64,000 nt of DNA, taken from positions 1,986,001 to 2,050,000 of the forward strand of contig CM119371.1 of assembly GCA_051294905.1 (NCBI GenBank). The letters are read 5' to 3'. The notes under the pieces are model-generated. The model ran no database searches. It had not been told where the DNA came from and saw only the letters and a program-made list of their open reading frames with translations. The DNA comes from Botryllus schlosseri (lineage: Eukaryota). Each line of letters opens with the position of its first letter. Position 1 is the first letter of the stretch. The position numbers and the translations under genes are program-made. Of this stretch, positions 8,336-31,886 are shown one piece after another.

Positions 8336-8827
8336 CGTTAGATGATACTTTTCCTTGATATTCTATTATGTGTATTTAGGGCTAATGCAACATCACTATG
8401 TTGGCGACAGGCCTGACTTGAACACACTAATTTTGCGAATTAAACTTATCTCCCAACACGGACACTCAATGAAGAGCACCCTGGAGACCCACATAAATGC
8501 TCCACAATTCTTGACATATTTATTACTGAGCATATAATAAGCTGACAAAACCTATACTTGAGTACTCCGAAATGTACAAGTACTTTTACCTTTACACGAC
8601 GTTTTTGTAAAATGAATACTAATTTTGAATAAAAATAAAAATTATGTACTCAAGTAGGTTTTTGTCTACACACACCAACTACTCAAGTGTTTATGACACA
8701 GGAATGATTCATTAAGTATAGCGCAAGCTGGCCGAACCTATACTTGAGTACTCCAAAATGAACAAGTACTTCGCTATGTACTCCCTCCACGTAAAAAGTG
8801 ACTAGGTTTTAGACTACTTTATCGATT

Positions 8828-10620
8828 TTCGATGTTGCGCAAATACCGCAAACTTTGCTTTCTTTCAGAGCTGGCAACTAAATGCAAGACAGACTTTTCG
8901 CAAAAGTCTCTATTCTGAAAATTTTATCACGTTAATACTTTAAAAACTTATACTTGAGCCCTACAAAATGTACATGTACTTTACCTTTACACGACGTTTT
9001 TTGTAAAATGAATACTAATTTTATTGAAAAAATAAAAGATAAAAAAAGAGCGAAAAATTACATTTTATACCGGAACGCAACAAGACAAATCGTATGAATT
9101 TGTAATCTACTTATTCATGACACAATATTAATTCTACTTGTATACTTTTTAATATTTTGTAACAATTTTATTAGTACTTAACTAAAATTCGGAATATAAA
9201 CCTATCGAAAAATTTGGTAACAAATTTCACATAGGCTATGCATACAAACGAGGAAAGGTACATCAACGCGTGTTAACTAATTGTATTATGTAGCTTGTAA
9301 TTCATGCAAGTTTCGAAACTTCTACACTGAGTCTTCTAAAGTAGATAGAATCGAAAAAACTAATCGAAAATATTTACGAAGTTTGAAAGCGATATATTTG
9401 GGTTTTTAAAAATTATTCATACCCATGATTCGAAATACTTTTACCTAACTTATGTTTTCGAAATAAGATAACCGTGAAGTGTACAAATTTCGATGTTGCG
9501 CAAATACCACAAACTTTGCTTGCTTTCAGAGCCAGCAACTAAATGCAAGACAGACTTTACGCAAAAGTTGCTATTCTGAAAATTTTGTCAAGGTAATAGT
9601 TTAAAAACTTATACTTGAGCACTACGAAATGTACAAGTACTTTATCTTTACACGACGTTTTTTGTAAAATGAATACTAATTTTATTGAAAAAATAAAAGA
9701 TAAGAAAAGAGCGAAAAATTACATTTTATACCGGAACGCAACAAGACAAATCGTATGAATTTGTAATCTACTTATTCATGACACAATATTAATTCTACTT
9801 GTATACTTTTTAATATTTTGTAACAATTTTAGTAGTACTTAACTAAAATTCGGAATATAAACCTATCGAGAAATTTGGTAACAAATTTCACATAGGTTAT
9901 GCATACAAACGAGGAAAGGTACATCAACGCGTGTTAACTAATTGTATTATGTAGCTTGTAATTCATGCAAGTTTCGAAACTTCTACACTGAGTCTTCTAA
10001 AGTAGATAGAATCGAAAAAACTAATCGAAAATATTTACGAAGTTTGAAAGCGATATATTTGGGTTTTTAAAAATTATTCATACCCATGATTCGAAATACT
10101 TTTACCTAACTTATGTTTTCGAAATAAGATAACGGTGAAGTGTACAAATTTCGATGTTGCGCAAATACCACAAACTTTGCTTGCTTTCAGAGCCAGCAAC
10201 TAAATGCAAGACAGACTTTACGCAAAAGTTTCTATTCTGAAAATTTTGTCAAGGTAATAGTTTAAAAACTTATACTTGAGCACTACGAAATGTACAAGTA
10301 CTTTATCTTTACTCGACGTTTTTTGTAAAATGAATACTAATTTTATTGAAAAAATAAAAAATATAAAAGAGCGAAAAATTTCATTTTGTCCCGGAACGCA
10401 ACAAGAAAAATCGTATGAATTTGTAAACTACTTATTCATGACATAACAATAATTCTACTTGTACACTTTTTCACATTTTATAACACTTTAAGTAGTACTT
10501 AACAGTTTCAGTTTTAAATAAAATACGGAATATAAACTAATCGAAAAATTCGGTAACCCATTTCGCGTAGGCTATGCATACAAATGAGGAAAGTTACATC
10601 AACGCGTGTTAACTAGTTGT
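8828..10620. repeat. ~661-bp AT-rich tandem repeat, ~2.7 copies; partial units at 8543-8790
   Basis: tttcgatgttgcgcaaatacc recurs at ~8828, 9488 and 10149; the first two units are near-identical and the third is more diverged. Confidence 0.92.
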
Positions 10621-13600
10621 ATCGAGTTATCGAATGATTTTTTCCTTACATCAAAACAACTAGAATGCGTAACTACAATAAAAACGTTTCTAAATAAGCT
10701 CCAGGGCATTGTGATTATGCAGCATACCAAATTTCATCACACATTTCATGATGGAACCACTTTAAAACTAACGCAGTTCTATAGCAACATTTGCCTAAAT
10801 CTGTTTTCGGTAGCGTGTACATATACATAGTCGATCGTGACTTGATTATTAAATTATGACATTATTAGACCAGGGTTGTGTTGAAGGTTATTACGATACA
10901 AACAAACTTTTCAGAAACATTGTTATAAACATATCGATTTGTAAAACTATATTAACATGTCTGAAATGTTTTGATTGGGAAGATTAAGTCGTGTTCGTAA
11001 AAACCACGCAGCGTATTGTCGATATCAGGAAATATTTTATAAACGTAATTGTCTCCAGTAACCAAGACTAAAGATGAAACAACAATTTCCTTTGTTGAAC
11101 AATAACCGGTACAATACTTTATCATCGTAATCTGCGGTGAGAATTGACACACTTTCGCACATTACCCGGTGTCAAGATATCACACTAGGTGAATTGATAT
11201 ACCGCCGCTTGATTAATATCTAATCCGTTCGCACCATTTCACATACTTTGATCATTACAAAAGTAAATTTAAATATGTTTGCTATATGCATTCAATTCAG
11301 TTAGAAATGTCTGGTGCACAACAATCGTGATATCAAGGAAGTAGTTGCTACACTGTCATTCACTTAACGTGTTTTGCATTGTTGTTCATTTGTAGTATTG
11401 ATTGAAATTGTTTTTGAACCGCCAAATAATAATTCCCGACATGAAACCAAGTCGCTGAAAGTCGTTACCATCACAACGAAACAATTTGTATAATGTCTGC
11501 CGAATGTATCCTAGAGTTAGGTGTACTAGAATTATTTGTCTAACACATACACCGACAATACAATCGAAAATTTTAGCGTTGTCATTCACTAAAGTAAATG
11601 TCATCACAATACTCTACCACTAAAAGACGTTACTTACATGTGATTGAATCCCTAACAATTACCTCACTATTCCAAAGAAATTTTACTCACTCGATGGATA
11701 TGAAACAGCGTCGCTTAATCGGTCTATATCGTTTTTTCTAAAGGTAAATCATATCCATCCAATAGAAAACAATTTTCACTAGCTTGGTAATGAAACCGAA
11801 GTCTTCATTCAATATTTTGTTTGTGTCAAATACTTTGCAATAAACACACTGGAGTGGTTGAGCTTTACATCATCAGGTTGTAATCTGTAAATCAAGCTTA
11901 CATCCGATTTGTAACTGTATTGTTTACCTAACCGAGTTGTATGCACAGTTTGATATTTTTGTCATTTAGTGATTGTTGAACATACCACTTCGAAATACTG
12001 CGTTGATCATAATTTCCATCATCATGATAAGCGAAGTACATTTCTTTTGAATTCATAACCATCGGTTTTTCTATGACATGATAAATTATTGACAAGTTCT
12101 GGTTAGAAGATTGGCTGCATATCACGAAAAATAATATACCACTCATATTGAGATACTGTTACTCCATTCATCGGTATTTTTTCCGTTTTCGATTTTCAAA
12201 CGAGTAAAATTTATTACTTGAGTTTCTCCGCCTAATCTAAATGTAAACTCGCCCGTCTTTCAACAACAAACAATGTTAAAAAAGTATGCAATCAAACACA
12301 ACAAGTTTTACTGTAGGACACTAATTCTTATCCCACATCCCACAACCCATTTCTTACCGAAGACATATGAAATATATTCATGTTACACGAAAATATTCGC
12401 TATTCCCATGCTACAAACCCGTACAATGATTGGTGGTGCTTTCAAAATGTTTTGATACCTCAAGAACTTTATTGTCTCAATGGATGTTCATGTATCTTAA
12501 TAATCAAATAGTTCAACACAGAACTAGTACGAACAGAAACACCAGAGTTGTTTACACAAAAGTTTATATGTGTACACTATGTGAATACCGTGTGTAAATC
12601 CAGCACAATTGTGGTATCCACCCGAGTTTAGTAAACACAATTTATGACACCGAGTCGCGTCATCTTTCATAAGACAACAAACCAAGGCTTCAGGATATGT
12701 CCATGTCATAGCAATAAATCAGCTACTCCAACAACATAGTGCATATGTTTTCTAGTTACGATGCTTACATCTTACACACAAATCAATCTACTTTGCTAAC
12801 GAAAAGTGGTGAGTCATCATATGGTTGTCCTCACAACAATACAACTAAACATACTATCATACAAAATGTTCGTTATAGTTTGCACACCAATGATACATCG
12901 TACAAGTAACAAGTCTCGAGAATCCAGTTATTCAAAAAACGTGAAAGTATTTCTACGCCAAGTCGTTATGTTGACGAAAGCGTATATTGTAATATCATGA
13001 TCGATTTGCATTCGTTGGTCACAAACTGTCACTACTCTAAATAATTCTTTTTCACTCAAACACAAAAGTATACTTGTCACCATTCGTTTCATCAAGCGCG
13101 AGTTCAAGAAACTTACTTACTGCGACATGAATTGCTAATTTTATGTTGTGTAAATAGGTAATAATTAATTTTAGTAACACTATATCAACATCATCTAGTT
13201 GTGCGAATAGATTTACATGTGGTCTTGTGGTTTTAATCGAAGTACACAGCACGGTCTAATGTAGAGTCATCTCTATTGTACAGCAACTCGGTCATCGGAA
13301 TGTATGCATTAAAATTTAAACAACGATCTTGTTTCGTCACGCGAAAAATATGTTCACTATCGCGATACTCTACACAAGATGTGCAAATCCTTTTCACACT
13401 CGTAATAGTATACCAACGACTACCGGCGACAACGTTTACCAACGACACTAAACATACGATACCTACTCAAGTAAAATTTCCATTTTCACCTGGAGGTCAG
13501 TCGTTACCCGAGTAAAAATACCATTTTTCTTTGGAGATCTGGCGTTTACCCAGTGTAAAAATACATTTTCTCTTGGTTATCTAGCTTTTCCTAGAATAAC

Positions 13601-14446
13601 AAAACCATTTTCATTATAAAATCTGACAAACACACCTGACAATTGGGTATTTGTTGTATTGACGATAGTTTGAAATAGATTACAACGAACAGTGACGGAA
13701 ATATACACAGACCCCCGGTTTCAGAGTATACCCCCATCAGTCGTATCACATCAATATCATCGGTGAACCACATACAATATACTCTTGTACACAGAAATGT
13801 GTGTTTTGGAAATTGGACAATAGTTTTCGACATGTCCACGATGTCCAGGTTCGCGCTTTAGGTTTTCCAGAGTCAAAGTGTCTGAATAAAACACCGCCTC
13901 GACTTGGGTAAATGTTTGGCGCACAGATAACAGCGGTCGGAAATCGAGGAATTTATGTTTCCGTCGGGTTAACAACACCGGGTTAATTGTGTTTACTATG
14001 TTGTGTCGCTCTTTATTGACCGACACATACAGCCCCATGCAGTTTGTAATCGGAAACCCCGAGAAAGTGTTAACCGGATCCGGATATCAACTCTGAATCG
14101 ATAAACCACACGCCACAACCTGTGTCTCTATGAAAATAACAAGACATCACGCAAATAAAGTATACTTCGTGATTATTTACCCACACATCGTGATTTAGCT
14201 GAATATGTAGTTTAGAAATTCTGTTTATTAATGTGTATCAAAATCATCGTCTTCTTTGTACGGCGTTACTGTGTGTCTCATCCTCGTGGATTCGTGTTAA
14301 ATTGGACTGAAGCTTGATTTACACGGGACCGATCCTGCGACAACGGATTATGTGTGTCCAGCTACTTACCGAGGCTATACATAAAAGTGAAGCCGATTTC
14401 CCTGATCCTGCCATCAATCCGTAATATCTGACCACTGCATAGGGAC
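10070..14446. repeat. Left arm (~4.4 kb) of a large inverted repeat
   Basis: The ORF track mirrors exactly (coordinate sum 36197) with 22159..26127; 14031..14446 is the reverse complement of 16099..16529. Confidence 0.97.
13463..13590. repeat. Three degenerate ~41-bp tandem units (mirrored at ~22607..22734)
   Basis: tactcaagtaaaatttccatttt / tacccgagtaaaaataccatttt / tacccagtgtaaaaatacatttt, each followed by a tggagatc-like motif. Confidence 0.65.
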
Positions 14447-14501
14447 TGAAAGACACAAACAACATTTCTTTATTTTTTTCACACAATTTAATGATCACAT
14501 T

Positions 14502-15185
14502 TTACATCATTACACTGACATGGCTAGCTACATGTCTTGCGAGTCCATTTTTTCGCCTAAATCTTTTCGCACAAATATGGCATTCGTAGACTCTGATGTC
14601 AGCGTGAATATCCAAATGCGACTTTAATTGGGTCTTTAGATGAAAATCTTTTCCACAGATCGGACATTTGTGGTCTTTCTCATCTTTATGGATACCCATG
14701 TGTCGTCTGAGCGAGCCTTCTCGACCGAACTCTTTCCCGCAAATTTCGCACTTATGAAGCCTGGCGTTGACATGTGCATTCATGTGATCCTTTAAACGAT
14801 GGGATTGAGTAAATGCTTTTCCACACACCCAACATTTGTGTTTTTTAATGACAAAGTGAGTAGCCACGTGGTTGGTGAGGTCTATTTGTCGCGTGAATAC
14901 CTTACCGCAAATTTGGCACTCGTGGTTTTTATCGGTAGAGTGAAAAGCTTCGTGGGTTTTTAGATTATCTTTCCGGATAAATCTTTTTCCACAAATTTGA
15001 CACTCATAGTTTTTAGCACCGAGGTGGCCGCGTTTGTGTCTCATAAAACTACTTCTCCGGATAAAACTTTCGCCACAAATACAGCAGTGATGATTCTTTA
15101 CACCTGCGTGTGCATCCATGTGGACATTCAAATTATGCTTCGAAGCCAATTCTTTTCCACAGATCAAGCATGTAAACGGATTCAT
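14502..15185 (-). CDS. C2H2 zinc-finger protein, 8 tandem fingers (227 aa from the ATG at 15185; may have upstream exons)
   Basis: Eight CxxC-x12-HxxxH units with no stops; a tttttag acceptor just upstream of the ATG; AATAAA on the minus strand at 14469-14474. Confidence 0.92.
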   Translation of the reverse strand: MNPFTCLICGKELASKHNLNVHMDAHAGVKNHHCCICGESFIRRSSFMRHKRGHLGAKNYECQICGKRFIRKDNLKTHEAFHSTDKNHECQICGKVFTRQIDLTNHVATHFVIKKHKCWVCGKAFTQSHRLKDHMNAHVNARLHKCEICGKEFGREGSLRRHMGIHKDEKDHKCPICGKDFHLKTQLKSHLDIHADIRVYECHICAKRFRRKNGLARHVASHVSVMM

Positions 15186-16529
15186 GGTTAACTTGCACAC
15201 TAAAAATAGTTCCTGAATACGACAAAAATGTTAAGCAACTCAGAACTGATGAATAATCGCGAAGTAATCTTATAACATTTCGGTTATATCATTACGATTC
15301 TTAATTTATTGATTTGAACCGGTGAGTCTTGGATTCGAGCGCGCCCCGCGGGGTCAATTGCACCCCACCGAGTGGTTCCGAGGGTCGCACGAAAGACTGC
15401 TTGAATTTTAAATACCAAACCCTCTTTTAGTGTTGATACGTGAACTAAAACCATACGATGTATAAGCCAGACCGGGAATTCGTTTACTACCAAAGCTTCG
15501 TCATCAACATATTCCACGATTACACAGTCTATACATACCTCACATGTCTAATCCGGATTAAAACTAAAGTCAATATATCAAGTTTATCGTTAGAATTAAA
15601 GCCACAACATGTCACCGAACTTTATTTGGTACAATTTTCACATTATACATTATGCGATCTGTGGTTCAAATTGTTACGCGATGTCTTCGAAATCTATAAT
15701 TCATAAAACAAGTTAACCAATTCTCATGCTTTTTTCTATGAATATACCACCACCCATAAAAGGGTATAAAAAACAAGAAAACCGATAGTCGGAATTCAGG
15801 AAGACACCGTAATTGCATCCACTGATCAAATTAACTACACCGGATATTCTAAAATTTCTGTCTCAATCCGTAAATATATTTCCGCTCCGCATTTGGTCCG
15901 TGAAGAGAAATTATTGCTGTTGTATAGTAACTATTGTGTACTTACACCCTGAACCGATTCTTAAACTGACACAATGCGTCCGAGTTCTTGAATTCTATAG
16001 ACCTAGTTTTCGAAAAAAATAAGTTCCTCTCGTACATTTTACCGGGAAATGCCCCACTGATTCGTTGGACACACACATGATCCATTGTCGCGGCATCCGT
16101 CCCTATGCAGTGGTCAGATATTGACGTACAGCAGATTACGGATTGATGGCAGGATCAGGGAAATCGGCTTCACTTTTATGTATAGCCTCGGTAAGTAGCT
16201 GGACACACATAATCCGTTGTCGCAGGATCGGTCCCGTGTAAATCAAGCTTCAGTCCAATTTAACACGAATCCACGAGGATGAGACACACAGTAACGCCGT
16301 ACAAAGAAGACGATGATTTTGATACACATTAATAAACAGAATTTCTAAACTACATATTCAGCTAAATCACGATGTGTGGGTAAATAATCACGAAGTATAC
16401 TTGATTTGCGTGATGTCTTGTTATTTTCATAGAGACACAGGTTGTGGCGTGTGGTTTATCGATTCAGAGTTGATATCCGGATCCGGTTAACACTTTCTCG
16501 AGGTTTCCGATTTCAAACTGCATGGGGCT

Positions 16530-18137
16530 TAGGGTTGTCCATAATTTGGAAAATCTCAAAATTTATGCGTATCCATGTCTCATTCTATAGATTATAGTTA
16601 AAAAACGTCAATGAACCTGCAATAAGCTCACGGGAAAGTCGTTAACATTTGTCTAAATGCGTTTGAAAGTAGCTGCCGTAGAGTGGGCGTGTTTGCGACC
16701 ATAGAACGGCAAGCAGACTAGTAATCACGAAATCACGGCGTTTGATTAGCTAATCTGCTACGCTTCAATGATCACGACATTGGTGGCTTGTTGATCAGCT
16801 GGTAAAGGAATCGGCTAACGGCGGTGATTCTGTAAGCGCATTGTAGGTTGGTCCGCCAGTCATTATTTAGGATTAATTCAGAACATGTTGAGTAACGAAA
16901 CACATGATGAACAAAGAACAGCTGCTTCACAATATCTTTAAATACATGACATGATGGCGTATTGTGAATGTAACCGTTGTAGCCTGTATGCCTTGATTTC
17001 ATTGATGGAAAGCACAAAAACAAGCGGAAAAATATTGCAAAGGCGCTTATGCAAGTGGCAAACGAATTTCTAGTTTCAGAGGAGATGTATCATCATTGAA
17101 TACAAATATAAAGCTTGACATTGACACTACTTTGTCTGATCTTATTAGGCTGTTGTCGTGGTGAAGTCTTGAATGCTGTAAGGGCTGGATTAATCTGTCA
17201 TTTATGCTTGGCACTTGTCAGATTATTGCAGCATAATGAATCATACCCGCAAGTGCTGTCAAAGTCTTCAATGATGCCGCGAAAAGAGGTCTAAAGATGA
17301 GCACAGACTATGCTGGTAGGACCAGCAAAAAGACAGTTTGCTTGCATTGCTTAGCATGTCCTTAATGAATCTAAGATCATTACCGGCTGCATGACGACTA
17401 ATGCTTGAATCAAACCAGACATGGACATAAAAATGATGTATTGAAGCGGTGTGGTAGTTACACTCTTCTTCAGAAATCCAATGTAAGCTACCTGGTCGGC
17501 CCACATATCTTCTGAGCATACAGGATTGTGTCCAGAATCCATATCACATGGTATGCTGCACCAGTTTGGCGATGTCTAATGTACCTTACCTGCACCCAGA
17601 AAAACAGGACCACTTGGTGTAATCTCAAGCATATCAGATATGTAGGCTATTTCTGGTATCCATACATACTTCTATAAGTTCACAACCATTCGCTGTTTCA
17701 CCTCTGTCATGCCTGCAATGGGTTATTGTTGCACTAAAGCTATCGGTACTTAGTTTTAACACTAAAACATTCAATGACCAGATGTCTCAGTTTATTATTA
17801 AATCACCAACATACAATGCGCTTACAGAATCATTGCCGTTAGCGAACTTCTTGAACTAGTATAAGCACATAATCAGCAAGCCGCTGTGGTCGTGACCATT
17901 CAAGCATAGCTGATTAACCAATGAAGAGACATGATTTCGTGATTACTAGTCTTCTCGCCGTTCTATGGTCGCTAACACGCCCACTCTAAGGCAGCTACTT
18001 TCAAACTCATTTAGACAAATGTTAACGACTTTCTTATGAGCTTATTGCAGGTTCATTGATGTTTTTTATCAATAATCTACAGAATGAGACATGGATACGC
18101 ATCTTTGTTGAGATTTTCCAAATTATGGACAACCCTA
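16530..18137. mobile_element. Internally deleted hATm-type element A
   Basis: ~200-bp imperfect TIRs starting tagggttgtccataatttggaaaatctc; transposase fragments RHAAGNDLRFIKDML and NDAAKRGLKMSTDYA. Confidence 0.85.
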
Positions 18138-18713
18138 GTATGTACATGCAAGTTCCCTAGTCCCACTTATTACTCGTTTCGCGCAGTGTGCTTACAATAT
18201 TATGAATTAATTAATTAGCTAGAGCAACAGTATATATATTATTTATCGCCTATATTTAAATTCGCTCATTTCATTTCAGATCAAACTGCCGACATTGCAT
18301 ACGCAATTTACGCTCGGAAAATTTCACATTTCTATCACAACTATCGCGCTATGCACTTCACCTGATGATGCAGGTGAGTTAGGCTACATTTCCGTATAGA
18401 TTTGCATTATGCCGATTTTACAAGTCCATAAGCTGCTGCTTTTAGATATGTGATTTTAATAGCTAGTGCACTGATGCTTTTCCGATAGTGAATAAAATCT
18501 ATAGCTAAACCTATGTCTATGCTATAATTTATCTCCCATTTTAAAACGCTATGCCACCGTGGCTTGAAGCTATATCTTAACATTTCAGATCAGCGACAAG
18601 CACTTCCATCTAGCACTAATACCTTGCTTGTTGCGGTTTTATAACTATAAATCTCATTTCCACTAAAATTTCAACGAACTGCGCTCGCATAAAGAAATTA
18701 AGTTCATGAAGGG

Positions 18714-21700: not shown

Positions 21701-22158
21701 CCGTTTTGCCTCTGCCATGACTGCACTATTGTTGCTCCAAAGCATAAACTACTGCTATCGACTCTGAAGCATTCAAAGAACACGTGTTACCGTACTACTA
21801 ATGACTCATCAACCCACAACGCGCTTGTACAGAACCACAACCGCTACTAACAGACTCTACTTCAGCAAAACAGACTTTCAATTTAGTAAAGCGAAGCTCC
21901 CGAATCCCAGTCAGCTGTTGCAGTAATCAGTGAAGCTTAGCCGATTACCCAATCAAGAACCGTGGTTTTGTGATTGCCCGCCTCTGCTGTCGGTTGCCCG
22001 CCCACTCTTCAACAACGACTTTCAAACGCATTTAGACAAATGTTAGCGGCTTTCCTGGGAGCTTCTTTCAAGCCCATTATTGTTTTTTAACAATAATCTA
22101 CAGAATAAGCGATGGACACGCAGAATTCCAAACATTTTCCAAATTTTGAACAACCCTA
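18714..22158 (-). mobile_element. Full-length hATm-type element B
   Basis: ~140-bp TIRs starting tagggttgttcaaaatttggaaaatg around a near-complete transposase gene. Confidence 0.88.
19417..21678 (-). pseudogene. hATm-type transposase (~750 codons) with frameshift(s) near 20800-20900 and an in-frame TAG at 20485-20487
   Basis: Motifs HWDGK, FDTTASNSG, ACPHH, HHARWM and VVNDAAERGVKL across ORFs 20881..21783, 20485..20805 and 19417..20457. Confidence 0.85.
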
Positions 22159-22166
22159 ATGGGGCT

Positions 22167-22610
22167 GTATGTGTTTGTCAATAAAGAGCGACACAACATA
22201 GTAAACACAAGTAACCCGGTGTTGTTAACCCGATGGAAACGTAAATTCCTCGATTTCCGACCGCTATTATCTGTGCGCCAAACATTTACCCAAGTCGAGG
22301 CGGTGTTTTATTCAGAAACTTTGACTCTGGAAAACCTAAAGCGCGAACCTGGACATCGTGGACATGTCGAAAACTATTGTCTAATTTCTAAAATACACAT
22401 TTCGGTGTACAAGAGTATATTGCATGTGGTTAACCGATGATATTGATGTGATACGACTGATGGGGGTATACTCTGAAACCGGTGGTCTGTGTATATTTCC
22501 GTCACTGTTCGTTGTAATCTATTTCAAACTATCGTCAATACAACAAATACCCAATTGTCAGGTGTGTTTGTCAGATTTTATAATGAAAATGGTTTTGTTA
22601 TTCTAGGAAA
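22167..22610 (+). pseudogene. Polinton A32-like packaging ATPase remnant (5' part near 16430..16529; mirror copy ~13590..14110 on minus)
   Basis: Walker B-like (F/L)TDDI near 22430, TVRCNL (RxN) at 22504 and FYNENGFVIL at 22576, in shifting frames. Confidence 0.5.
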
Positions 22611-22734
22611 AGCTAGATAACCAAGAGAAAATGTATTTTTACACTGGGTAAACGCCAGATCTCCAAAGAAAAATGGTATTTTTACTCGGGTAACGACTGA
22701 CCTCCAGGTGAAAATGGAAATTTTACTTGAGTAG

Positions 22735-23870
22735 GTATCGTATGTTTAGTGTCGTTGGTAAACGTTGTCGCCGGTAGTCGTTGGTATACTATTACGAGTG
22801 TGAAAAGGATTTGCACATCTTGTGTAGAGTATCGCGATAGTGAACATATTTTTCGCGTGACGAAACAAGATCGTTGTTTAAATTTTAATGCATACATTCC
22901 GATGACCGAGTTGCTGTACAATAGAGATGACTCTGCATTAGACCGTGCTGTGTACTTCGATTAAAACCACAAGACCACATGTAAATCTATTCGCACAACT
23001 AGATGATGTTGATATAGTGTTACTAAAATTAATTATTACCTATTTACACAACATAAAATTAGCAATTCATGTCGCAGTAAGTAAGTTTCTTGAACTCGCG
23101 CTTGATGAAACGAATGGTGACAAGTATACTTTTGTGTTTGAGTGAAAAAGAATTATTTAGAGTAGTGACAGTTTGTGACCAACGAATGCAAATCGATCAT
23201 GATATTACAATATACGCTTTCGTCAACATAACGACTTGGCGTAGAAATACTTTCACGTTTTTTGAATAACTGGATTCTCGAGACTTGTTACTTGTACGAT
23301 GTATCATTGGTGTGCAAACTATAACGAACATTTTGTATGATAGTATGTTTAGTTGTATTGTTGTGAGGACAACCATATGTTGACTCACCACTTTTCGTTA
23401 GCAAAGTAGATTGATTTGTGTGTAAGATGTAAGCATCGTAACTAGAAAACATATGCACTATGTTGTTGGAGTAGCTGATTTATTGCTATGACATGGACAT
23501 ATCCTGAAGCCTTGGTTTGTTGTCTTATGAAAGATGACGCGACTCGGTGTCATAAATTGTGTTTACTAAACTCGGGTGGATACCACAATTGTGCTGGATT
23601 TACACACGGTATTCACATAGTGTACACATATAAACTTTTGTGTAAACAACTCTGGTGTTTCTGTTCGTACTAGTTCTGTGTTGAACTATTTGATTATTAA
23701 GATACATGAACATCCATTGAGACAATAAAGTTCTTGAGGTATCAAAACATTTTGAAAGCACCACCAATCATTGTACGGGTTTGTAGCATGGGAATAGCGA
23801 ATATTTTCGTGTAACATGAATATATTTCATATGTCTTCGGTAAGAAATGGGTTGTGGGATGTGGGATAAG
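22735..23870 (-). pseudogene. Protein-primed family B DNA polymerase remnant, C-terminal part (mirror copy ~12330..13462 on plus)
   Basis: In the left-arm copy, SLFP (12397), LIPQELY, CTLC (12571), WYPPEF (12612) and FIRQQTKASGY (12666) occur in the expected order of SLYP...LCxxC...GTWxxxEL...FLKxKQExSGxP. Confidence 0.55.
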
Positions 23871-23936
23871 AATTAGTGTCCTACAGTAAAACTTGTTGTG
23901 TTTGATTGCATACTTTTTTAACATTGTTTGTTGTTG

Positions 23937-24928
23937 AAAGACGGGCGAGTTTACATTTAGATTAGGCGGAGAAACTCAAGTAATAAATTTTACTCGTTTG
24001 AAAATCGAAAACGGAAAAAATACCGATGAATGGAGTAACAGTATCTCAATATGAGTGGTATATTATTTTTCGTGATATGCAGCCAATCTTCTAACCAGAA
24101 CTTGTCAATAATTTATCATGTCATAGAAAAACCGATGGTTATGAATTCAAAAGAAATGTACTTCGCTTATCATGATGATGGAAATTATGATCAACGCAGT
24201 ATTTCGAAGTGGTATGTTCAACAATCACTAAATGACAAAAATATCAAACTGTGCATACAACTCGGTTAGGTAAACAATACAGTTACAAATCGGATGTAAG
24301 CTTGATTTACAGATTACAACCTGATGATGTAAAGCTCAACCACTCCAGTGTGTTTATTGCAAAGTATTTGACACAAACAAAATATTGAATGAAGACTTCG
24401 GTTTCATTACCAAGCTAGTGAAAATTGTTTTCTATTGGATGGATATGATTTACCTTTAGAAAAAACGATATAGACCGATTAAGCGACGCTGTTTCATATC
24501 CATCGAGTGAGTAAAATTTCTTTGGAATAGTGAGGTAATTGTTAGGGATTCAATCACATGTAAGTAACGTCTTTTAGTGGTAGAGTATTGTGATGACATT
24601 TACTTTAGTGAATGACAACGCTAAAATTTTCGATTGTATTGTCGGTGTATGTGTTAGACAAATAATTCTAGTACACCTAACTCTAGGATACATTCGGCAG
24701 ACATTATACAAATTGTTTCGTTGTGATGGTAACGACTTTCAGCGACTTGGTTTCATGTCGGGAATTATTATTTGGCGGTTCAAAAACAATTTCAATCAAT
24801 ACTACAAATGAACAACAATGCAAAACACGTTAAGTGAATGACAGTGTAGCAACTACTTCCTTGATATCACGATTGTTGTGCACCAGACATTTCTAACTGA
24901 ATTGAATGCATATAGCAAACATATTTAA
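23937..24928 (+). pseudogene. Polinton major capsid protein remnant (mirror ~11269..12260; third copy from 26282 split by a hAT)
   Basis: GEFTFRLGGETQVINF at 23944, NMSGILFF, and C-terminal DITIVVHQTFLTELNA at 24863 resemble Polinton MCP termini; many deletions. Confidence 0.45.
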
Positions 24929-27412
24929 ATTTACTTTTGTAATGATCAAAGTATGTGAAATGGTGCGAACGGATTAGATATTAATCAAGCGGCGGTATAT
25001 CAATTCACCTAGTGTGATATCTTGACACCGGGTAATGTGCGAAAGTGTGTCAATTCTCACCGCAGATTACGATGATAAAGTATTGTACCGGTTATTGTTC
25101 AACAAAGGAAATTGTTGTTTCATCTTTAGTCTTGGTTACTGGAGACAATTACGTTTATAAAATATTTCCTGATATCGACAATACGCTGCGTGGTTTTTAC
25201 GAACACGACTTAATCTTCCCAATCAAAACATTTCAGACATGTTAATATAGTTTTACAAATCGATATGTTTATAACAATGTTTCTGAAAAGTTTGTTTGTA
25301 TCGTAATAACCTTCAACACAACCCTGGTCTAATAATGTCATAATTTAATAATCAAGTCACGATCGACTATGTATATGTACACGCTACCGAAAACAGATTT
25401 AGGCAAATGTTGCTATAGAACTGCGTTAGTTTTAAAGTGGTTCCATCATGAAATGTGTGATGAAATTTGGTATGCTGCATAATCACAATGCCCTGGAGCT
25501 TATTTAGAAACGTTTTTATTGTAGTTACGCATTCTAGTTGTTTTGATGTAAGGAAAAAATCATTCGATAACTCGATACAGCTAGTTAACACGCGTTGATG
25601 TAACTTTCCTCATTTGTATGCATAGCCTACGCGAAATGGGTTACCGAATTTTTCGATTAGTTTATATTCCGTATTTTATTTAAAACTGAAACTGTTAAGT
25701 ACTACTTAAAGTGTTATAAAATGTGAAAAAGAGTACAAGTAGAATTATTGTTATGTCATGAATAAGTAGTTTACAAATTCATACGATTTTTCTTGTTGCG
25801 TTCCGGGACAAAATGAAATTTTTCGCTCTTTTATATTTTTTATTTTTTCAATAAAATTAGTTTTCATTTTACAAAAAACGTCGAGTAAAGATAAAGTACT
25901 TGTACATTTCGTAGTGCTCAAGTATAAGTTTTTAAACTATTACCTTGACAAAATTTTCAGAATAGAAACTTTTGCGTAAAGTCTGTCTTGCATTTAGTTG
26001 CTGGCTCTGAAAGCAAGCAAAGTTTGTGGTATTTGCGCAACATCGAAATTTGTACACTTCACGGTTATCTTATTTCGAAAACATAAGTTAGGTAAAAGTA
26101 TTTCGAATCATGGGTATGAATAATTTTGTAGCATGGGAATAGCGAATATTTTCGTGTAACATGAATATATTTCATATGTCTTCGGTAAGAAATGGGTTGT
26201 GGGATGTGGGATAAGAATTAGTGTCCTACAGTAAAACTTGTTGTGTTTGATTGCATACTTTTTTAACATTGTTTGTTGTTGAAAGACGGGCGAGTTTACA
26301 TTTAGATTAGGCGGAGAAACTCAAGTAATAAATTTTACTCGTTTGAAAATCGAAAACGGAAAAAATACCGATGAATGGAGTAACAGTATCTCAATATGAG
26401 TGGTATATTATTTTTCGTGATATGCAGCCAATCTTCTAACCAGAACTTGTCAATAATTTATCATGTCATAGAAAAACCGATGGTTATGAATTCAAAAGAA
26501 ATGTACTTCGCTTATCATGATGATGGAAATTATGATCAACGCAGTATTTCGAAGTGGTATGTTCAACAATCACTAAATGACAAAAATATCAAACTGTGCA
26601 TACAACTCGGTTAGGTAAACAATACAGTTACAAATCGGATGTAAGCTTGATTTACAGATTACAACCTGATGATGTAAAGCTCAACCACTCCAGTGTGTTT
26701 ATTGCAAAGTATTTGACACAAACAAAATATTGAATGAAGACTTCGGTTTCATTACCAAGCTAGTGAAAATTGTTTTCTATTGGATGGATATGATTTACCT
26801 TTAGAAAAAACGATATAGACCGATTAAGCGACGCTGTTTCATATCCATCGAGTGAGTAAAATTTCTTTGGAATAGTGAGGTAATTGTTAGGGATTCAATC
26901 ACATGTAAGTAACGTCTTTTAGTGGTAGAGTATTGTGATGACATTTACTTTAGTGAATGACAACGCTAAAATTTTCGATTGTATTGTCGGTGTATGTGTT
27001 AGACAAATAATTTTAGTACATCTAACTCAGTGGTTCTCAACCTTTTTTACCCGCGGACTCATCTCAAGCTCGCCAGTATACCCGCGGACTCAAGCTATAT
27101 ATTACTGATTTTTTTTTATCCAAGGGAGTGTAATACGGTATCAACAAAAAATGAGCTAAAATTGAGTCAAGGAAGCTTTCTTAAATCTGTCTTTCCACAT
27201 CTGTCGGCTTTGCAATTCAAGCAACTATTCAGTAAATGCAGACCACATCTCGATTTCCACTTATATTAGACAACTATAGATTGTTTCTGTGATTAGCACA
27301 TGTCCCTACGATTTGTAATTTCCCAAATAGTCTGTAAGTGAACAAGTCGCCATAATCAATCACCAGCACTCAGCGTATATCGCACCGGAAACCTGTGCAA
27401 TGTGCATACGTG

Positions 27413-27883
27413 CAGGACCGTAACAGCACTTCGTCAGCCCCCCCTCAATAACAAAACGTTGGTCTTGGGCCACACAGGCCTTAAACCTAACTTCTGGTGG
27501 GCTTCACCCCCAGACCCCCCTTCCGATACGTTTTTACCGCTACTTCTCAGCGAAATTTTTGTACCGTTCGTTCAGTCGTTTTGTTTCGAATAAACCGTGC
27601 GAGGCGTGAAAATATCCCATAATCATGATTGAATCGGTCGACATGATCGGGGATTGCATCTAGTTGTAAATTTTTTATGCTATCTCTGCTCATGCATTCA
27701 GATTTATCGGTCGAGCTGAGCGAGACGTTTCGGAACATGATATAATGATATAATTTTTCTAAAAAGTTGCATAAATTTTCAAAAAACACTCTATAATTTA
27801 TGTTAATTCACGAATAATTTTGGCCCCCCTTCGAGGTCCCCCCCTCAATTATGGGGGTTTGGTGTACGGCAGTTACGGTCCCG
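27413..27883. mobile_element. hAT-type MITE nested in 27028..29153
   Basis: TIRs caggaccgtaac / gttacggtcccg; TSD catacgtg on both sides. Confidence 0.85.
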
Positions 27884-28916
27884 CATACGTGTGTAGTGTA
27901 TAAAGAGCTGTCCCAGGGGTTTATACCTGGTATATTCTGTATGTGAATTGTTAATAGTGAACACGCGGCAATAAATTCCGAGTCCGGTCGTACTAAATTC
28001 AAGTGAATCCGACCAAAATTGTAGAGTTTATGACCGTGATAAAATTGCTTATGACAATTTTAGCAATAGGCTATACCTCGAACATAAATGTAGGGCATTT
28101 TGAAAAATTCCAGTTGGCGATAATTGGGGTTTTATACCTGGCGTGATTGGTATCAAACCAGGATGATGCGACAGATGTGCAAAGCATACCCGTTTTGCCT
28201 GTGATACTTGCAACCAACTGGTTTGCCCAAGACACAGAAAATATCAGGAGAACCAATAATGCTTGGAATGCTGATCAATTTGTAGTGGTGCTGTTTCGTT
28301 GTTCTTGCGTTTGAAATATACGTGGCCAAACATCGCTTGTTGAGGTATCTCTAATATTGCTTCCAAAACTACATTCACTGCAGTATAATTTATTAACTTG
28401 CAGGAATTTCGTATGCCCCTTATCAGCAAGAGGTAACGGCACAATAAGAAGCATATAGAAAGAGATTTAAACAAAATCCAAATTGGCGAAATATGACGTA
28501 ACAATGCAATGATAAAAAGGAACGGTAGCTGGCCAAAGTCAGCTGTACCGGTACTTCGGTAGTCATAATAAAGGGATAATAGAGAATCAAATTATACGAT
28601 ACTCAGAAGACGTTACACAGACAATTAGGGGAATATATTAATGGAATATTGAAAGATTGTATACAAACTCTTTATCCTTTTTATGGTGCCGTTAATTCTT
28701 GATAAGGGAAACCCGAAAAGTCGCCGAGGTAATAAATTCTACTGCAATGAATGTAGTTCTGAAAGCACTATTGAAGTTGAGTGCCGCCAGTCACATATTT
28801 GAGGTATCTATGCATTTTCTATGACAGCTATTAAGGTTACTAACATTTCAAAATGGGTATTTTGTAAATCACTCAGCCTAATTCTCAACTCGGAATTGGA
28901 CGAAACCGGACCAGTA

Positions 28917-28998
28917 CGGGGCTCATTCACTTTCGGACCAAAAAGCTATTTTCTCCGTAAGGCTGCAATGACTTTGGTCCGAAAGTGAACGAGCCCCG
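28917..28998. mobile_element. 82-bp hairpin MITE with TA TSD
   Basis: cggggctcattcactttcggaccaaa ... tttggtccgaaagtgaacgagccccg, flanked by ta/ta. Confidence 0.8.
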
Positions 28999-29419
28999 TA
29001 GGTCTGTCAATTACATGTTCCGAAATCGTATCGGAAGTGGAAGAAAAAGTGTGCCGAGCCGATTAAGTTACTGAAAATTCCTGTGTTCGCGGACTCACCA
29101 AGGACCTTCCGCGGACTCAAATGAGTCCGCGGACTCGGGGTTGGGAAACACTGATCTAACTATAGGATACATTTGGCAAACATCGTACAAATTGTTTCGT
29201 TGTGATGGTAACGACTTTCAGCGGCTTGGTTTCATGTCGGAATTATTATTTGGGGGTTCAAAAACAATTTCAATCAATACTACAAATGAACAACAATGCA
29301 AAACACGTTAAGTGAATGACAGTGTAGCAACTACTTCCTTGATATCACGATTGTTGTGCACCAGACATTTCTAACTGAATTGAATGCATCTAGCAAACAT
29401 ATTTCAATTTACTTTTGTA

Positions 29420-29935
29420 ATGATCAAAGTATGTGAAATGGTGCGAACGGATTAAGTATTAATCAAGCGGCGGTATGTCAATTCACCTAGTGTGATATCT
29501 TGACACCGGGTAATGTGCGAAAGTGTTTCAATTCTCACCGCAGATTACGATGATAAAGTATTGTACCGGTTATTGTTCAACAAAGGAAATTGTTGTTTCA
29601 TCTTTAGTCTTGGTTACTGGAGGCAATTACATTTGTAAAATATTTCCTGATATCCACAATACGCTGCGTGGTTTTTACGAACACGGTTTAATCTTCCCAA
29701 TCAAAACATTTCAGACATGTTAATCTAGTTTCACAAATCGATATGTTAATAACAATGTTTCTGAAAAGTTTGTTGGTATCGTAATAACCTTCAACACAAC
29801 CCGGTCTAATAATGTCATAATTTAATAATCAAGTCGTGATCGACTATTACAAAATCTCATATGTCAAAATCAATGTGTCAATTCATATGTTTACATCGTG
29901 AGAATTTTCAATATAACGCATGCGTTCGATTGTAA
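29420..29935 (+). pseudogene. Polinton minor capsid (penton) remnant; truncated copies ~24942..25370 and mirror
   Basis: TGYCSTKEI, NTLRGF, IFPIKTFQ (29691), then HVNLVS..YVNNN..PG resemble the penton pattern GxY..LLGF..IxPIxxIxIHCNLV..SYVN..PG. Confidence 0.5.
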
Positions 29936-29937
29936 GA

Positions 29938-30200
29938 AATGAATTCTCAACTACGTTGGTCAGACATTCAAATCCGGTATACTCAAATGTAATATGTTAA
30001 TCTCAAACCACACACCGAGTAGTATTTACTTTGGTTTATAAAATATACCGAGTAGTAATTACTTTATCTTACAGAATAGTAACGACTTTTACAGTTGAAC
30101 AAATAAAAAGATGATTTGGCGGTATATGACTACAACCGAACTTGCTATGGATTTTGGATTGTGGTGATTACTCGCGTAGTCTTGTCTACTTTTCATAAGG
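29938..30200 (+). pseudogene. Adenain-like cysteine protease remnant
   Basis: YDYNRTCY (30125) followed by DCGDY (30157) resembles the YN..Q..CGxYC catalytic-Cys motif; positioned after the penton remnant. Confidence 0.35.
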
Positions 30201-30269
30201 ATACTTTTTGCTTTGGTAGGGTAAGTTACAAACGGATTGACTTGAAAAGGCTTTTTTTTTTGTTTTAAT

Positions 30270-30730
30270 CTTTTGTGTATGGGAAGATGTTAAAATGTTG
30301 AGACGTAATACTATTTCCGTTCACTCGATTGCAACAAAAAATAACCTGATAGTTTGTTCAAGGTTTCGACAAATAGATTGAAATATTCCGCTTTAACTCA
30401 TCGCGTCACAAGTCGATCGCGGTATGTACAAGTGGTTGTCAAGTTAGAAATATTTACAACAGGTGCTATTTCATTGATTGATTCTATTGTGTGTAGTAAC
30501 ACATTAAAATATCGAGATAGTATTTACTGAAACTCTATTTGATAAACGGAAAACTCAGTCGTGAATAGAGTTGTAAGTTTGTGACTGGATCAAAGTTGGT
30601 AGTCATGTTTGTCAATCCTATTTCAATTCACATTATACCAAAGTCAAAATATTTCGTTTTTGATTATCTCGGTTACCTGTAGTACATCTGACGAACGGAT
30701 TTAAAGTTGGCGAATTACCAAAATGATTGA
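30270..30730 (+). pseudogene. Polinton retroviral-like (rve) integrase remnant
   Basis: SQVDRG..MYKWL (30406), NTLK, QSYFNSH and FKVGE (30700) follow the order VDxGxEF..WL..RTLK..YNN.H..KFKVGD. Confidence 0.55.
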
Positions 30731-31249
30731 ATATTATCGGGTTAGATATAGTTGGTATTGATTCTATAAGTGTTAAAACAGCGGCGTGTAATGTGTGAAT
30801 GATCCGGAAACGGAGTTGAAAGTTGGTCAATTCAAGGTCGCCGTCGTTGTGGTTCTATTATTCGTTACCCTTGTCAGTGATCGTGTGATTTTACAATTAT
30901 TTCACATCTATTTGAGTATGCGGTAACCGCACAAAGGATTAGGGTTAGGACGGAAATAAGTGACAATTTGTTGCTGTTCAAGTTACCGACACTGGGGGTT
31001 CTGTTAGTCGTTACTTATTAAATCTTACCAGCGAAATCAAGTTCTGTGACAAACTGATTACTAAAATTTCACCGCGTGAGCGATCGGTATGGTTATGACA
31101 CCAAGTCGTGAAAGATGACTATGTCTGAGGTGTTATCTTGTGGGTGATCGTAGGATTTTACAAATATTTCACACCTTTTTGAATTGTATGTGAACGCGGC
31201 TATTGTTGGTATTTGAATCGCCGTCTGCGCCGGCTCTGTGACAAACTAA

Positions 31250-31886
31250 ATACCTGAAAGTACGACTTGCCGCCGCAGCCATAAGAAACCTCACGAGAGA
31301 TACCTATTCCCGAAAGTACGAATTACGACCGCGCCCATAAGACGCAATAGCCGCATGCCGCCCCGCCATAAGACATAAGAGCCGCTTGCGGCCCCCGTCG
31401 TAAGAAATAAGCGCCACTCGCCACCCGAGGTTTCGTGTTAGCATCAATAGCCGCTCGCCACCCCGCCATAAGACGCAATAGCCGCATGCGACCGCACCCA
31501 TAAGAACACATGGCGAGTCACCACAGATCCCGTAAGAATACATGGCACATCACCAACGACGCCTATACCTGAAAGGGTGCCGTCACCAGAGATACCATAA
31601 GAAACAATGGCACATCACCAGAGATCACGTAAGAATACATAACAGGCACATCACCGACGCAGCCTATATCTGAAAGTACGACTCACCAACACGAGTTTTC
31701 ACGGCAGGTCATGAGCGAGCCCTATACCTGAAAGGGTGGGGTCACCAGAGATCCCATAAGAAACAATGGCAAGTCACTAGCGATAGGGGGGTCTAAAAAG
31801 GCGCATCACCACCACGAGTTTCCAGGCGCATCACCACCCCGCCCATAAGAACCCAATACGATGTGCCACCGATCGTATATACTACT
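31250..31886. repeat. Putative Polinton terminal region with short subterminal repeats
   Basis: Repeated ccgccataaga, cctatacctgaaag and gcacatcacca motifs, ending TATATACTACT (reverse complement AGTAGTATATA). Confidence 0.65.

Follow-up and report, generated by a model that had tools for sequence, protein, structure and literature searches.

A probable non-autonomous Polinton derivative with palindromic arms and a zinc-finger gene, rearranged in the genome of Botryllus schlosseri

Most descriptions of Polintons (Mavericks) present them as virus-like elements with many genes and short ends, and non-autonomous Polintons have already been catalogued. Snap-back (inverted-repeat) defective genomes are known from adenoviruses and other protein-primed linear replicons, as extrachromosomal by-products of infection. 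The excerpt of PMC10748475 on Polintons gives a size of 13-25 kb, terminal inverted repeats (TIRs) of 100-1,500 bp, and target site duplications (TSDs) of 5-8 bp. Butterfly polintons, as far as the excerpted preprint goes (bioRxiv 10.1101/2025.02.07.637071), have ~2-kb TIRs with hexon and adenain genes and keep the core viral genes; the same excerpt cites Widen 2023 and Jeong 2023 on polintons that carry genes or transposons as cargo. Galileo of Drosophila is placed in the P superfamily in the excerpt of PMC3573991.

The window analyzed in this study is a 64,000-nucleotide stretch of B. schlosseri DNA (contig CM119371.1, positions 1,986,001 to 2,050,000). We assign a probability of roughly 0.72 to the reading that a genome-wide family of non-autonomous Polinton/Maverick derivatives, palindromes that are moved in trans, is represented here by one copy that has been rearranged and immobilised, with a zinc-finger (ZF) gene as selected cargo. 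The features of the locus are as follows.

8336..10826, no strand assigned: fragment X of an unrelated long-inverted-repeat family, carrying 661-bp tandem units (8827-10622)
10827..14425, plus strand: left arm, reduced to the inner 3.6 kb of ~6.3 kb; its terminus and ~2 kb of outer sequence are missing
14426..16134, no strand assigned: loop of the ZF-bearing subfamily, 1,709 bp
14469-14474, minus strand: AATAAA hexamer, a polyadenylation signal predicted by sequence match, 28 bp past the stop codon
14502..15185, minus strand: intact ZF ORF, 227 aa, eight C2H2 fingers and no other domain
15338..15798, no strand assigned: ~460-bp repeat of high copy number, lying upstream of the ZF ORF and shared by the C12 copy
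16135..16529, minus strand: right arm, innermost 395 bp (self-BLAST, 99.2% to 14031-14425)
16530..22158, no strand assigned: composite hAT-like insertion of 5.6 kb, with units of 1.6 kb (16530-18137) and 3.4 kb (18714-22158) and a spacer between them
19417..21786, minus strand: transposase-like frame, 790 codons with two in-frame stops
22167..25370, minus strand: right arm, mirroring 10827-14030 (self-BLAST, 99.5%)
25371..26127, minus strand: inverted copy of the foreign flank 10070-10826, part of fragment X (self-BLAST)
26125..27028, minus strand: direct duplicate of the arm segment 23780-24683, 99.8%
27028..29151, no strand assigned: DNA-transposon insertion of 2.1 kb, TIRs CAGTGGTTCTCAACC.../...GGTTGGGAAACACTG, 8-bp TSD ATCTAACT
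29156..31886, minus strand: right arm, outer part, ending in the sole element terminus of the window, ACTACT at 31881-31886

Self-BLAST of the window aligned the inverted arms 10070-14038 and 26127-22159 at 99.5% identity over 3,969 bp, and the inner pair, 14031-14425 and 16529-16135, at 99.2%. A third, partial arm copy matches in two pieces (26125-27028, 99.8% to 23780-24683; 29156-29847, 96.1% to 24677-25370). Matches of such length are far beyond chance, and the two to three near-identical copies reported in a preliminary description of this DNA are indeed there. That description had also called the locus recently duplicated, which holds for one local event of templated repair; for the most part the repetition consists of ~6-kb inverted arms that are built into the element and are 98.3-100% identical within copies. 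Further, it had treated 10070-31886 as one element. This interval is not a single element with two ends, because a pattern search for Polinton-type termini matched only once in the window, at 31881-31886.

Complete family members, found elsewhere in the genome, are ~12-16 kb long and consist of two non-coding arms of ~6.3-6.6 kb and a loop of 0.3-1.7 kb. Their ends read 5'-AGTAGT...ACTACT-3', as seen in the C6, C4, C14, and C12 copies, and a 6-bp TSD flanks all four complete copies (TTCGTC, CACTTG, GCTGTC, and CTCGTC, the last belonging to the ZF-bearing C12 copy), the count covering elements with both ends in the extracted DNA (the C10 extract began inside the element, and the window copy is without its left end). 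Of 38 non-self high-identity rows for the outer arm, 28 form 14 inverted pairs and 10 stand alone, a lower bound, as 40 of 7,054 candidates were scored. In four extracted elements, all of them palindromic, the arms agree at 99.6-99.98% and the loops measure 332-932 bp.

One could suppose that the palindrome arose when chromosomal DNA around a host ZF gene was duplicated locally in inverted orientation, with no transposition at all, and two details of the window fit this: 757 bp of foreign flank (10070-10826) are mirrored at 25371-26127, and 904 bp are duplicated at 26125-27028 with a microhomology joint. However, the C12 copy has the same ZF-bearing arm-loop-arm unit between AGTAGT/ACTACT ends with a perfect 6-bp TSD, and at least 14 further palindromic arm copies lie on other contigs. 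Local duplication is thus contradicted for the element as a whole, for which we hold it to be extremely improbable, and applies only to the 2.35-kb block 23780-26124.

The relationship of the family to Polintons was analyzed by comparison with one coding copy from the same genome (C1:5923771-5942033; AGTAGT/ACTACT ends, TSD GCCGAG), which has a protein-primed polymerase and an integrase (DNA_pol_B_2, 33 bits with a cut-off of 25.8; rve+chromo, E=2.7e-16). Over 318-319 bp, its terminal region (Polinton positions 39-355) and the C6 copy agree at 88%, and positions 729-975 are 71-73% identical to three family copies; in all, the terminal ~450 bp and a ~250-bp subterminal block are shared, and beyond ~1 kb no credible DNA or tblastx similarity was found between the arms and this Polinton. 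The right arm of the window contains subterminal short repeats at 31276-31840. The two repeat motifs mentioned in the preliminary description are real and belong here, the CCGCCATAAGA-like motif (at most two mismatches) occurring seven times in 31276-31840 and the CCTATACCTGAAAG-like motif four times in 31303-31721.

The surrounding DNA had been described as a dead scaffold of viral genes, riddled with stops and frameshifts. It is true that nothing in it is open, but no decayed frame that could have been shifted was detected either: none of 87 ORFs from the arms and flanks scored above the Pfam threshold, so that no remnant of a viral protein was found among them. The scan covered 87 of the 99 stop-to-stop ORFs of at least 55 aa from 7876-22437 and 26111-32825, the other 12 being the ZF frame and 11 frames that run antisense within the transposase-like gene. 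By the same scan the window element has no gene for polymerase, integrase, capsid, ATPase, or protease, and rve integrases were found only in the separate coding elements. An autonomous Polinton/Maverick was rejected on these grounds, together with the lack of a credible tblastx match to the coding Polinton. Common ends, TSD length, and terminal homology without viral remnants point to a non-autonomous Polinton derivative, as had been proposed, and not to a decayed Polinton body.

Superfamilies other than Polinton also make 6-bp TSDs. The family could therefore be another DNA transposon of this kind, or a Foldback-type element, that gained Polinton ends by recombination; arms making up ~95% of the length and the lack of genes give it a Foldback-like look, and the Polinton match is confined to the outer ~1 kb. 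We find such an origin very unlikely, since the shared parts, ends and TSD length, are what an integrase acts on, and no alternative transposase could be tied to the family (ORFs of at least 150 aa in four elements are terminal-repeat frames and one further frame). Returning to the Polinton derivative, we infer that coding Polintons in the same genome probably supply the integrase that moves the family in trans, because the ends are shared and 73 of the 113 integrase matches among the matches listed are full-length, stop-free, and at least 94% identical. The elements would transpose via this integrase owing to the terminal ~450 bp that they have in common with its source.

In every copy checked, the two arms are 98.3-100% identical. 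Over a 690-bp segment, five within-copy pairs are 100% identical and two fall slightly short (98.9% and 98.3%), whereas identity between copies is 91.4-98.4%. Since arms are near-identical within a copy while copies differ by 2-9%, they appear to be homogenised against each other, and we infer that this process acts in the chromosome or during replication. A single strand could fold as a giant hairpin, because the element is nearly all inverted arms around a short loop.

A more specific proposal, which we consider unlikely, is that an endogenous Polinton virus gave rise to the elements as "snap-back" defective genomes, in which one end was copied back on itself and which then became integrated, with helper-driven movement, hairpin-corrected arms, and a ZF gene retained by element-level selection. 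Such genomes would use the protein-primed replication and the integrase of the helper, every replication cycle would produce a single-stranded hairpin, within which each of the two 6-kb arms would serve to correct the other, and the ZF gene would be retained as a predicted DNA-binding factor for the element's own arms or subterminal repeats. If true, this would account both for arm identities of 99.7-100% within copies that differ by up to 9% and for the growth of loops into arms; the 317 bp of the arms nearest the loop occur in the ZF subfamily alone.

The ZF gene occupies the loop of a minor subfamily with five loci, in which a 1.7-kb loop carries an eight-finger C2H2 gene, predicted to be intronless, with its own AATAAA signal. 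The C12 loop is the sole homologue of the window loop (90-91%), the ZF-less loops of 0.3-1.1 kb being unrelated to it, and the repeat at 15338..15798 has 32 matches among the matches listed (~77-80% identity to query positions 892-1352). Among four ATG-initiated ORFs of at least 100 aa in 9000-33000, the ZF gene (227 aa) is the only clean one apart from transposase, as noted before; the others are a 101-aa ORF that matched nothing and two stretches (290 and 265 aa) into which a single transposase-like frame is broken. The ORF matches zf-C2H2 (Pfam, E=2.5e-42), and a regular expression found eight of eight fingers complete (C-x2-C-x12-H-x3-H). It begins inside finger 1, the open frame running only 15 codons upstream of the ATG, and Pfam found finger families only, with no KRAB/SCAN/BTB-type effector domain in the genomic frame including these codons. 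The predicted polyadenylation hexamer lies 44 bp from the arm/loop boundary (14425), not ~25 bp as first described. We take the predicted product to be a sequence-specific DNA-binding cargo protein, acting for the element or for the host.

Outside the window, the ORF is intact in the complete 16-kb copy on C12, where the protein is 87% identical and open over 243 codons; six of its eight fingers are complete, and zinc ligands are lost in the other two (H78Q, C118Y). The remaining three loci are broken, by four stops on C3, by an insertion that splits the gene on C2, and by 6 inserted and 34 deleted columns at C1:29.08 Mb (80% identical). No close relative was found outside the B. schlosseri genome, the best being 41% identical, and hundreds of host ZF genes are at most 50% identical to the window ZF. 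The gene is thus neither single-copy nor confined to the window, as further loci, among them the TSD-flanked C12 copy, hold it in the same kind of relic. With two intact and three broken copies, though, the relic is not the vehicle of ZF family expansion that had been suggested.

For the window and C12 genes, dN/dS is 0.21 by NG86, and the maximum likelihood omega is 0.30 (kappa 3.4, LRT 19.2, p=1.2e-5). The 684-bp CDS contains no gaps, with about 10 indels expected at the rate of the arms, where the same pair has 23-24 gap openings in 1.65 kb. Hence the earlier suggestion of selection gains support: the ORF shows signs of purifying selection, which would have held it open while the subfamily spread. 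The inferred strength of selection hangs on the neutral yardstick, because non-synonymous divergence (p about 0.063) is only modestly lower than divergence in the non-coding arms (0.088) and third codon positions are unusually fast (37/227).

The same ORF might be a chance passenger, a fragment of a host ZF array trapped in the loop, functionless and decaying, its low omega left from the donor or an early phase. We regard this as possible, if doubtful. Three broken loci out of five, lost ligands in two of the eight C12 fingers, an ORF of fingers only that begins within finger 1 and is without an effector domain, and a nearest outside relative at 41% all agree with it, as do the DNA-contact positions, where a hand count of non-synonymous changes gave no enrichment (5/30, about 4 expected). 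On the other hand, the 10% divergence of the window and C12 genes postdates capture, because both share the element context, and it is within this divergence that omega is 0.30 and indels are absent from the CDS; the window copy, moreover, retains all of its fingers.

Alternatively, the window gene could have been domesticated by the host at a locus fixed by loss of the terminus, for example as a repressor of the Polinton-derived family, the role in which KRAB-ZNF genes of vertebrates act. An immobile copy with all eight fingers, 13 synonymous against 9 non-synonymous polarised changes on its lineage, and gene flanks that are the best-conserved part between the window and C12 (2/76 and 13/346 mismatches, against 8.8% in the arms) are compatible with this, but the gene has no repressor or other effector domain, and the C12 lineage (20 synonymous, 21 non-synonymous) has the same selection signal. 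We judge domestication to be improbable, and prefer selected cargo of the non-autonomous family.

The window copy has lost its left terminus and is fused to another repeat, fragment X, at 10826/10827; in other copies the equivalent of 29848-31886 extends past the position matching 10827. The X family has many ~92% copies elsewhere, as inverted pairs 10-28 kb apart, and the fragment is truncated here on both sides, because these copies run past both 8336 and 10832. Templated repair would also have carried the left arm and 757 bp of foreign flank over to the right side. As the flank was duplicated along with the arm, in-situ templated repair or conversion is indicated and not transposition; a 3-bp microhomology is present at the junction 26125-26127. 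With only one terminus (31886) left, the window copy is immobile, so the proposal that it still amplifies does not apply to it.

Insertion of the hAT-like composite into the right arm would have followed the loss of the left terminus and the fusion to fragment X. Its TIRs start TAGGGTTG, and a single 8-bp TSD, ATGGGGCT, is present at 16522-16529 and 22159-22166; the left arm reads through this site without interruption. Short TIRs of the TAGGG/CAGGG type are the rule in hAT elements, and the insertion 16530-22158 combines them with the 8-bp TSD. Intact relatives of the transposase-like frame, of ~775 aa, exist. The window frames matched no Pfam family, the hAT dimerisation domain included, and a PDB sequence search gave no match; of eight longer relatives (634-818 aa), four were scanned, and none of these had a Pfam family at E<=1.

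These observations indicate that a large, apparently recently active Polinton population coexists with gene-less, nearly pure 6-kb palindrome parasites. The palindromic copies are material for studying how protein-primed replicons keep terminal repeats identical and what Polinton integration minimally requires in cis. If transcribed, their hairpins would yield long double-stranded RNA matching Polinton ends, which could matter for silencing. The ZF gene is a rare cargo of a non-autonomous virus-like element still bearing a signature of selection, and could be an element-encoded DNA-binding factor or an early host domestication. For annotation, the lesson is that inverted repeats of kilobase length and near-identity belong, in this genome, mostly to the structure of elements and not to recent segmental duplications.

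Among known systems, compound hAT transposons (macrotransposons) resemble the 5.6-kb insertion 16530-22158, with its two hAT-like units sharing one 8-bp TSD, and this likeness is limited to the secondary insertion and does not extend to the Polinton-derived element itself. Foldback and Galileo of Drosophila, to judge from the excerpted account, likewise consist for the most part of long inverted arms with internal repeats and have few coding copies or none, whereas the ends, TSD length, and terminal homology found here point to a Polinton integrase. Long TIRs and non-viral cargo are common to the butterfly and cargo-bearing polintons in the material cited; compared with the butterfly elements, the arms here are three times longer and non-coding, and the cargo is the only gene. 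From Polintons as sized in the excerpt, the family differs in that no viral genes were found in it and in TIRs of ~6.3-6.6 kb, ~95% of the element, instead of 0.1-1.5 kb, while AG...CT termini, the 6-bp TSD, and terminal sequence in common with coding copies of the same genome connect the two. Finally, snap-back genomes are extrachromosomal, whereas the elements described here are integrated, TSD-flanked, multi-copy, and known from genomic sequence alone; both nonetheless join a genome end to its own mirror image, carry the replication or integration signal at both ends, and keep their terminal repeats identical.

The long mirrored repeats at 10070-31886 of the window are the inverted arms of a mobile family and for the most part not a local duplication. 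The near-identical copies noted in the preliminary description were recovered in self-comparison of the window as four blocks. Four ATG-initiated ORFs of at least 100 aa were found at 9000-33000, and Rfam detected no families across 8000-33000.

Repeats and frames inside the window
10070-14038 versus 26127-22159: mirrored, 99.5% identity
14031-14425 versus 16529-16135: mirrored, 99.2% identity
26125-27028 versus 23780-24683: repeat, 99.8% identity
29156-29847 versus 24677-25370: repeat, 96.1% identity
14502-15185, minus strand: zinc-finger ORF (ATG-ORF scan and Pfam)
within 9000-33000: 101-aa ORF without a match
19417-21786: transposase-like frame of 790 codons with two in-frame stops, seen as two ORF pieces

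A search of the 495-Mb assembly with the arm yielded many copies at 90-92% identity, mostly as inverted pairs. In other copies the arm continues past the equivalent of window position 10827 into sequence matching 29848-31886, so that a complete arm, given in window coordinates, comprises the reverse complement of 31886..29848 and then 10827..14108 or 14425. The query 29848-33500 gave 38 non-self high-identity matches, 28 of them forming 14 inverted pairs and 10 standing alone, both counts being lower bounds from the best 40 of 7,054 candidates scored. The arms, previously described as recently duplicated, thus belong instead to a genome-wide palindromic family with at least 14 inverted pairs elsewhere. 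Four retrieved pairs are near-pure palindromes, with arms of up to 6.6 kb that are 99.6-99.98% identical to each other and loops of 332-932 bp; their only frames of at least 150 aa are mirrored ones in the terminal repeat regions and a single 150-aa frame. Three of these palindromes and the copy on contig C12, the four copies with both ends in the retrieved DNA, all start with AGTAGT, end with ACTACT, and are flanked by a perfect 6-bp target site duplication (TSD), namely TTCGTC, CACTTG, GCTGTC, and, for the C12 copy, CTCGTC.

The left arm of the window copy is devoid of its outer ~2 kb and terminus, and adjoins at 10826/10827 a fragment of a separate inverted-repeat family (repeat family X). 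The right arm is interrupted at 16529/16530 by a 5.6-kb insertion, and its outer part by an inserted 2.1-kb element that has CAGTG ends and is flanked by the TSD ATCTAACT. A single Polinton-type terminus remains (31870-31886) and the copy cannot move as a unit, so the proposal that it still amplifies fails for this copy. Two subterminal repeat motifs, which the zinc-finger protein might bind as the preliminary description proposes, occur in 7 and 4 copies within 31276-31840. With 98.4% identity to a copy on contig C6 and 96.4% to the inner arms, the outer right-arm piece may have undergone exchange with another family member.

The 5.6-kb insertion (16530-22158) is a two-unit composite with TAGGGTTG inverted ends and one shared 8-bp TSD, ATGGGGCT. 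Its transposase-like protein of ~775-790 aa has intact relatives in public data, from 86% down to 29% identity, of which the eight longer ones are all unnamed; a second copy of the same protein family is located at 54267-55088(-). Pfam and PDB sequence searches with the protein gave no match. Judged from sequence, the ends of this insertion look hAT-like, and the protein is not recognizable as a hAT transposase. Transposon-type frames are also found at 473-1390(+), 4525-6330(+), 35095-36027(-), and 50053-50991(+); by our own reading one of them (602 aa) resembles a transposase of zinc-finger/hAT type, and several others resemble reverse transcriptases.

Other palindromic repeats were observed as well. 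Repeat family X (8336-10832) occurs in inverted pairs 10-28 kb apart, for instance on contigs C5 and C6, and its long arms are packed with tandem repeats of 130 bp and 661 bp; neither its true ends nor a TSD could be located in two retrieved copies. Another large palindrome, the third, spans 12.2 kb (36818-48978), with arms that are 89-95% identical in four blocks around a ~3-kb center. Both its ends start with TCCCAGCAAACACGAG, with no obvious TSD.

The arms of the palindromic family were compared in an identity matrix over 690 bp shared by most copies. Within an element the two arms are 100% identical in five elements, including the window copy, 98.9% in one, and 98.3% in one, whereas different elements are 91.4-98.4% identical. 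Arm-to-arm differences are mostly clustered indel columns and not scattered substitutions. Independent accumulation of changes would leave the arms about as different as the lineages, and one arm must therefore be corrected repeatedly against the other. In the window, the mirrored block carries 757 bp of foreign repeat, copied from 10070-10826 to 25371-26127, and is adjacent to a 904-bp duplication whose join is a 3-base microhomology. The mirrored foreign flank and the duplication are the footprint of a right-arm break repaired from the left arm, and the window copy thus shows that at least one arm-correcting process works in the chromosome. We hypothesize that further correction could take place in replication via a single-stranded hairpin; panhandle repair and the snap-back defective genomes of adenoviruses are analogues of such a process.

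A coding Polinton of 18.3 kb lies on the same contig, 3.9 Mb from the window (C1:5923771-5942033). It has inverted ends of ~440-800 bp (99.5% identical), AGTAGT...ACTACT termini, and the TSD GCCGAG; direct translation of the locus revealed an ORF with an rve integrase core and a chromodomain, and a 1,214-aa frame whose DNA_pol_B_2 match exceeds the Pfam cut-off. Positions 39-355 of this element match the termini of the palindromic copy on C6 at 88% identity, and the subterminal block 729-975 is 71-73% identical to three palindromic copies; past ~1 kb nothing credible was detected by blastn or tblastx. At least 73 copies of one Polinton integrase, among 113 matches listed genome-wide, span the full length without a stop at 94% or more amino acid identity, and two more integrase lineages are present at ~66% and ~54% identity. 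The genome has many coding Polintons that could act as helpers, a large population that looks young. Many inverted pairs spaced ~12-14 kb also carry the terminal region of the coding Polinton, and most enclose no integrase match among the matches listed, which points to additional non-autonomous families of comparable size.

In the Pfam scan, 87 of 99 stop-to-stop ORFs of at least 55 aa were searched, the excluded 12 being the zinc-finger frame and 11 antisense frames within the transposase-like gene, and none reached the cut-off. Sub-threshold hits to DUF6903 (16.6 bits) and TKTI1 (16.7 bits) in arm ORFs were rejected as chance matches. As the ends, TSD, and terminal sequence are shared and the arms show no protein remnant, the palindromic family is best filed as a non-autonomous Polinton derivative, which has in common with the coding elements only the parts an integrase acts on. 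Of the dead Polinton scaffold proposed earlier, the non-autonomous derivative with Polinton ends and 6-bp TSDs stands; decayed viral genes, found in none of the 87 ORFs, do not.

The loop of the window copy contains the zinc-finger gene (14502-15185, minus strand; Pfam C2H2, E=2.5e-42). All four zinc ligands are present in each of the eight fingers, and the protein consists of fingers only. The AATAAA hexamer of the proposed polyA signal is present 28 bp beyond the stop codon, at 44 bp and not ~25 bp from the arm boundary. This loop is missing from most family members, whose loops are unrelated in sequence; the C11 locus has the inner arm only. The expectation that paralogs of the gene are embedded in the same relic was borne out: the gene occurs at five loci, among them the C12 copy with both AGTAGT...ACTACT ends and a 6-bp TSD, and is dead at three of them.

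Loci of the element-borne zinc-finger gene
Window: open ORF
C12, 17.86 Mb: open, complete element
C2, 33.05 Mb: gene split by an insertion, truncated
C3, 30.27 Mb: one arm kept, four stops
C1, 29.08 Mb: 80% identical fragment, 6 inserted and 34 deleted columns

The C12 element is complete (16,156 bp, 6.3-kb arms, both termini, TSD CTCGTC), indicating that the gene travelled along with the element. Zinc-finger paralogs of the host reach no more than 50% identity with the element-borne gene, and beyond this genome the only relatives are generic finger proteins with at most 41% identity (among the proteins of 124-398 aa searched). C2H2 genes have undergone massive expansion on contig C1, where they form clusters near 4-6.5, 10, 18, 26, 32-37, and 41 Mb, and none of them exceeds 50% identity with the gene of the element. 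With ~6-13% sampled of each RNA run carrying the same species label, three reads partly fit the zinc-finger region in one of four runs and none in the other three.

The two open copies are 90.1% identical in nucleotide and 87% in protein sequence, with no gap in 684 bp, where about ten would be expected at the rate of the arms (23-24 gap openings per 1.65 kb). The NG86 dN/dS is 0.21, and a pairwise codon model gave omega 0.30 (kappa 3.4) and rejected omega=1 (2*deltalnL = 19.2, p=1.2e-5), in agreement with the earlier suggestion of selection on this gene. Polarized with the broken copies, the window lineage has 13 synonymous and 9 non-synonymous changes, and the C12 lineage 20 and 21, including a zinc ligand lost in two fingers. 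As caveats to these estimates, third codon positions are oddly fast, differing at 37 of 227 sites (16%), about twice the 8.8% of the arms, and fourfold sites at 8 of 52; the immediate flanks are oddly slow, with 2.6-3.8% difference.

From these comparisons we take the gene to be a cargo that purifying selection probably maintained as the subfamily spread, which would imply that its product was a functional DNA-binding protein during at least some of this period. Were the arms identical at insertion, the 10% divergence of the two open copies would mostly be older than their insertions and would point to selection on the propagating lineage; in situ arm correction weakens this dating. The gene could instead be a decaying passenger by now, a less favored but serious alternative in view of the three dead loci, the fingers-only protein, and the ligand losses in C12; the low omega and the ungapped coding sequence argue against it. 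Domestication of the window copy by the host seems unlikely. An element-linked role of the zinc-finger gene, to which we assign the remaining probability of roughly one half, is the reading we prefer.

In the literature, Polintons are given as 13-25 kb long with terminal inverted repeats (TIRs) of 100-1,500 bp and TSDs of 5-8 bp (PMC10748475), butterfly polintons are described with gene-bearing TIRs of ~2 kb, and earlier work is cited for gene and transposon cargo in polintons (bioRxiv 10.1101/2025.02.07.637071). The literature searched, mostly titles and abstract openings, contained no description of multi-kilobase palindromic, gene-less Polinton derivatives or of zinc-finger cargo in Polintons. 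A non-autonomous element using the integrase of a helper and the capture of cargo are already familiar; what is unusual is the palindromic architecture, the arm homogenization, and a non-autonomous copy with a selected cargo.
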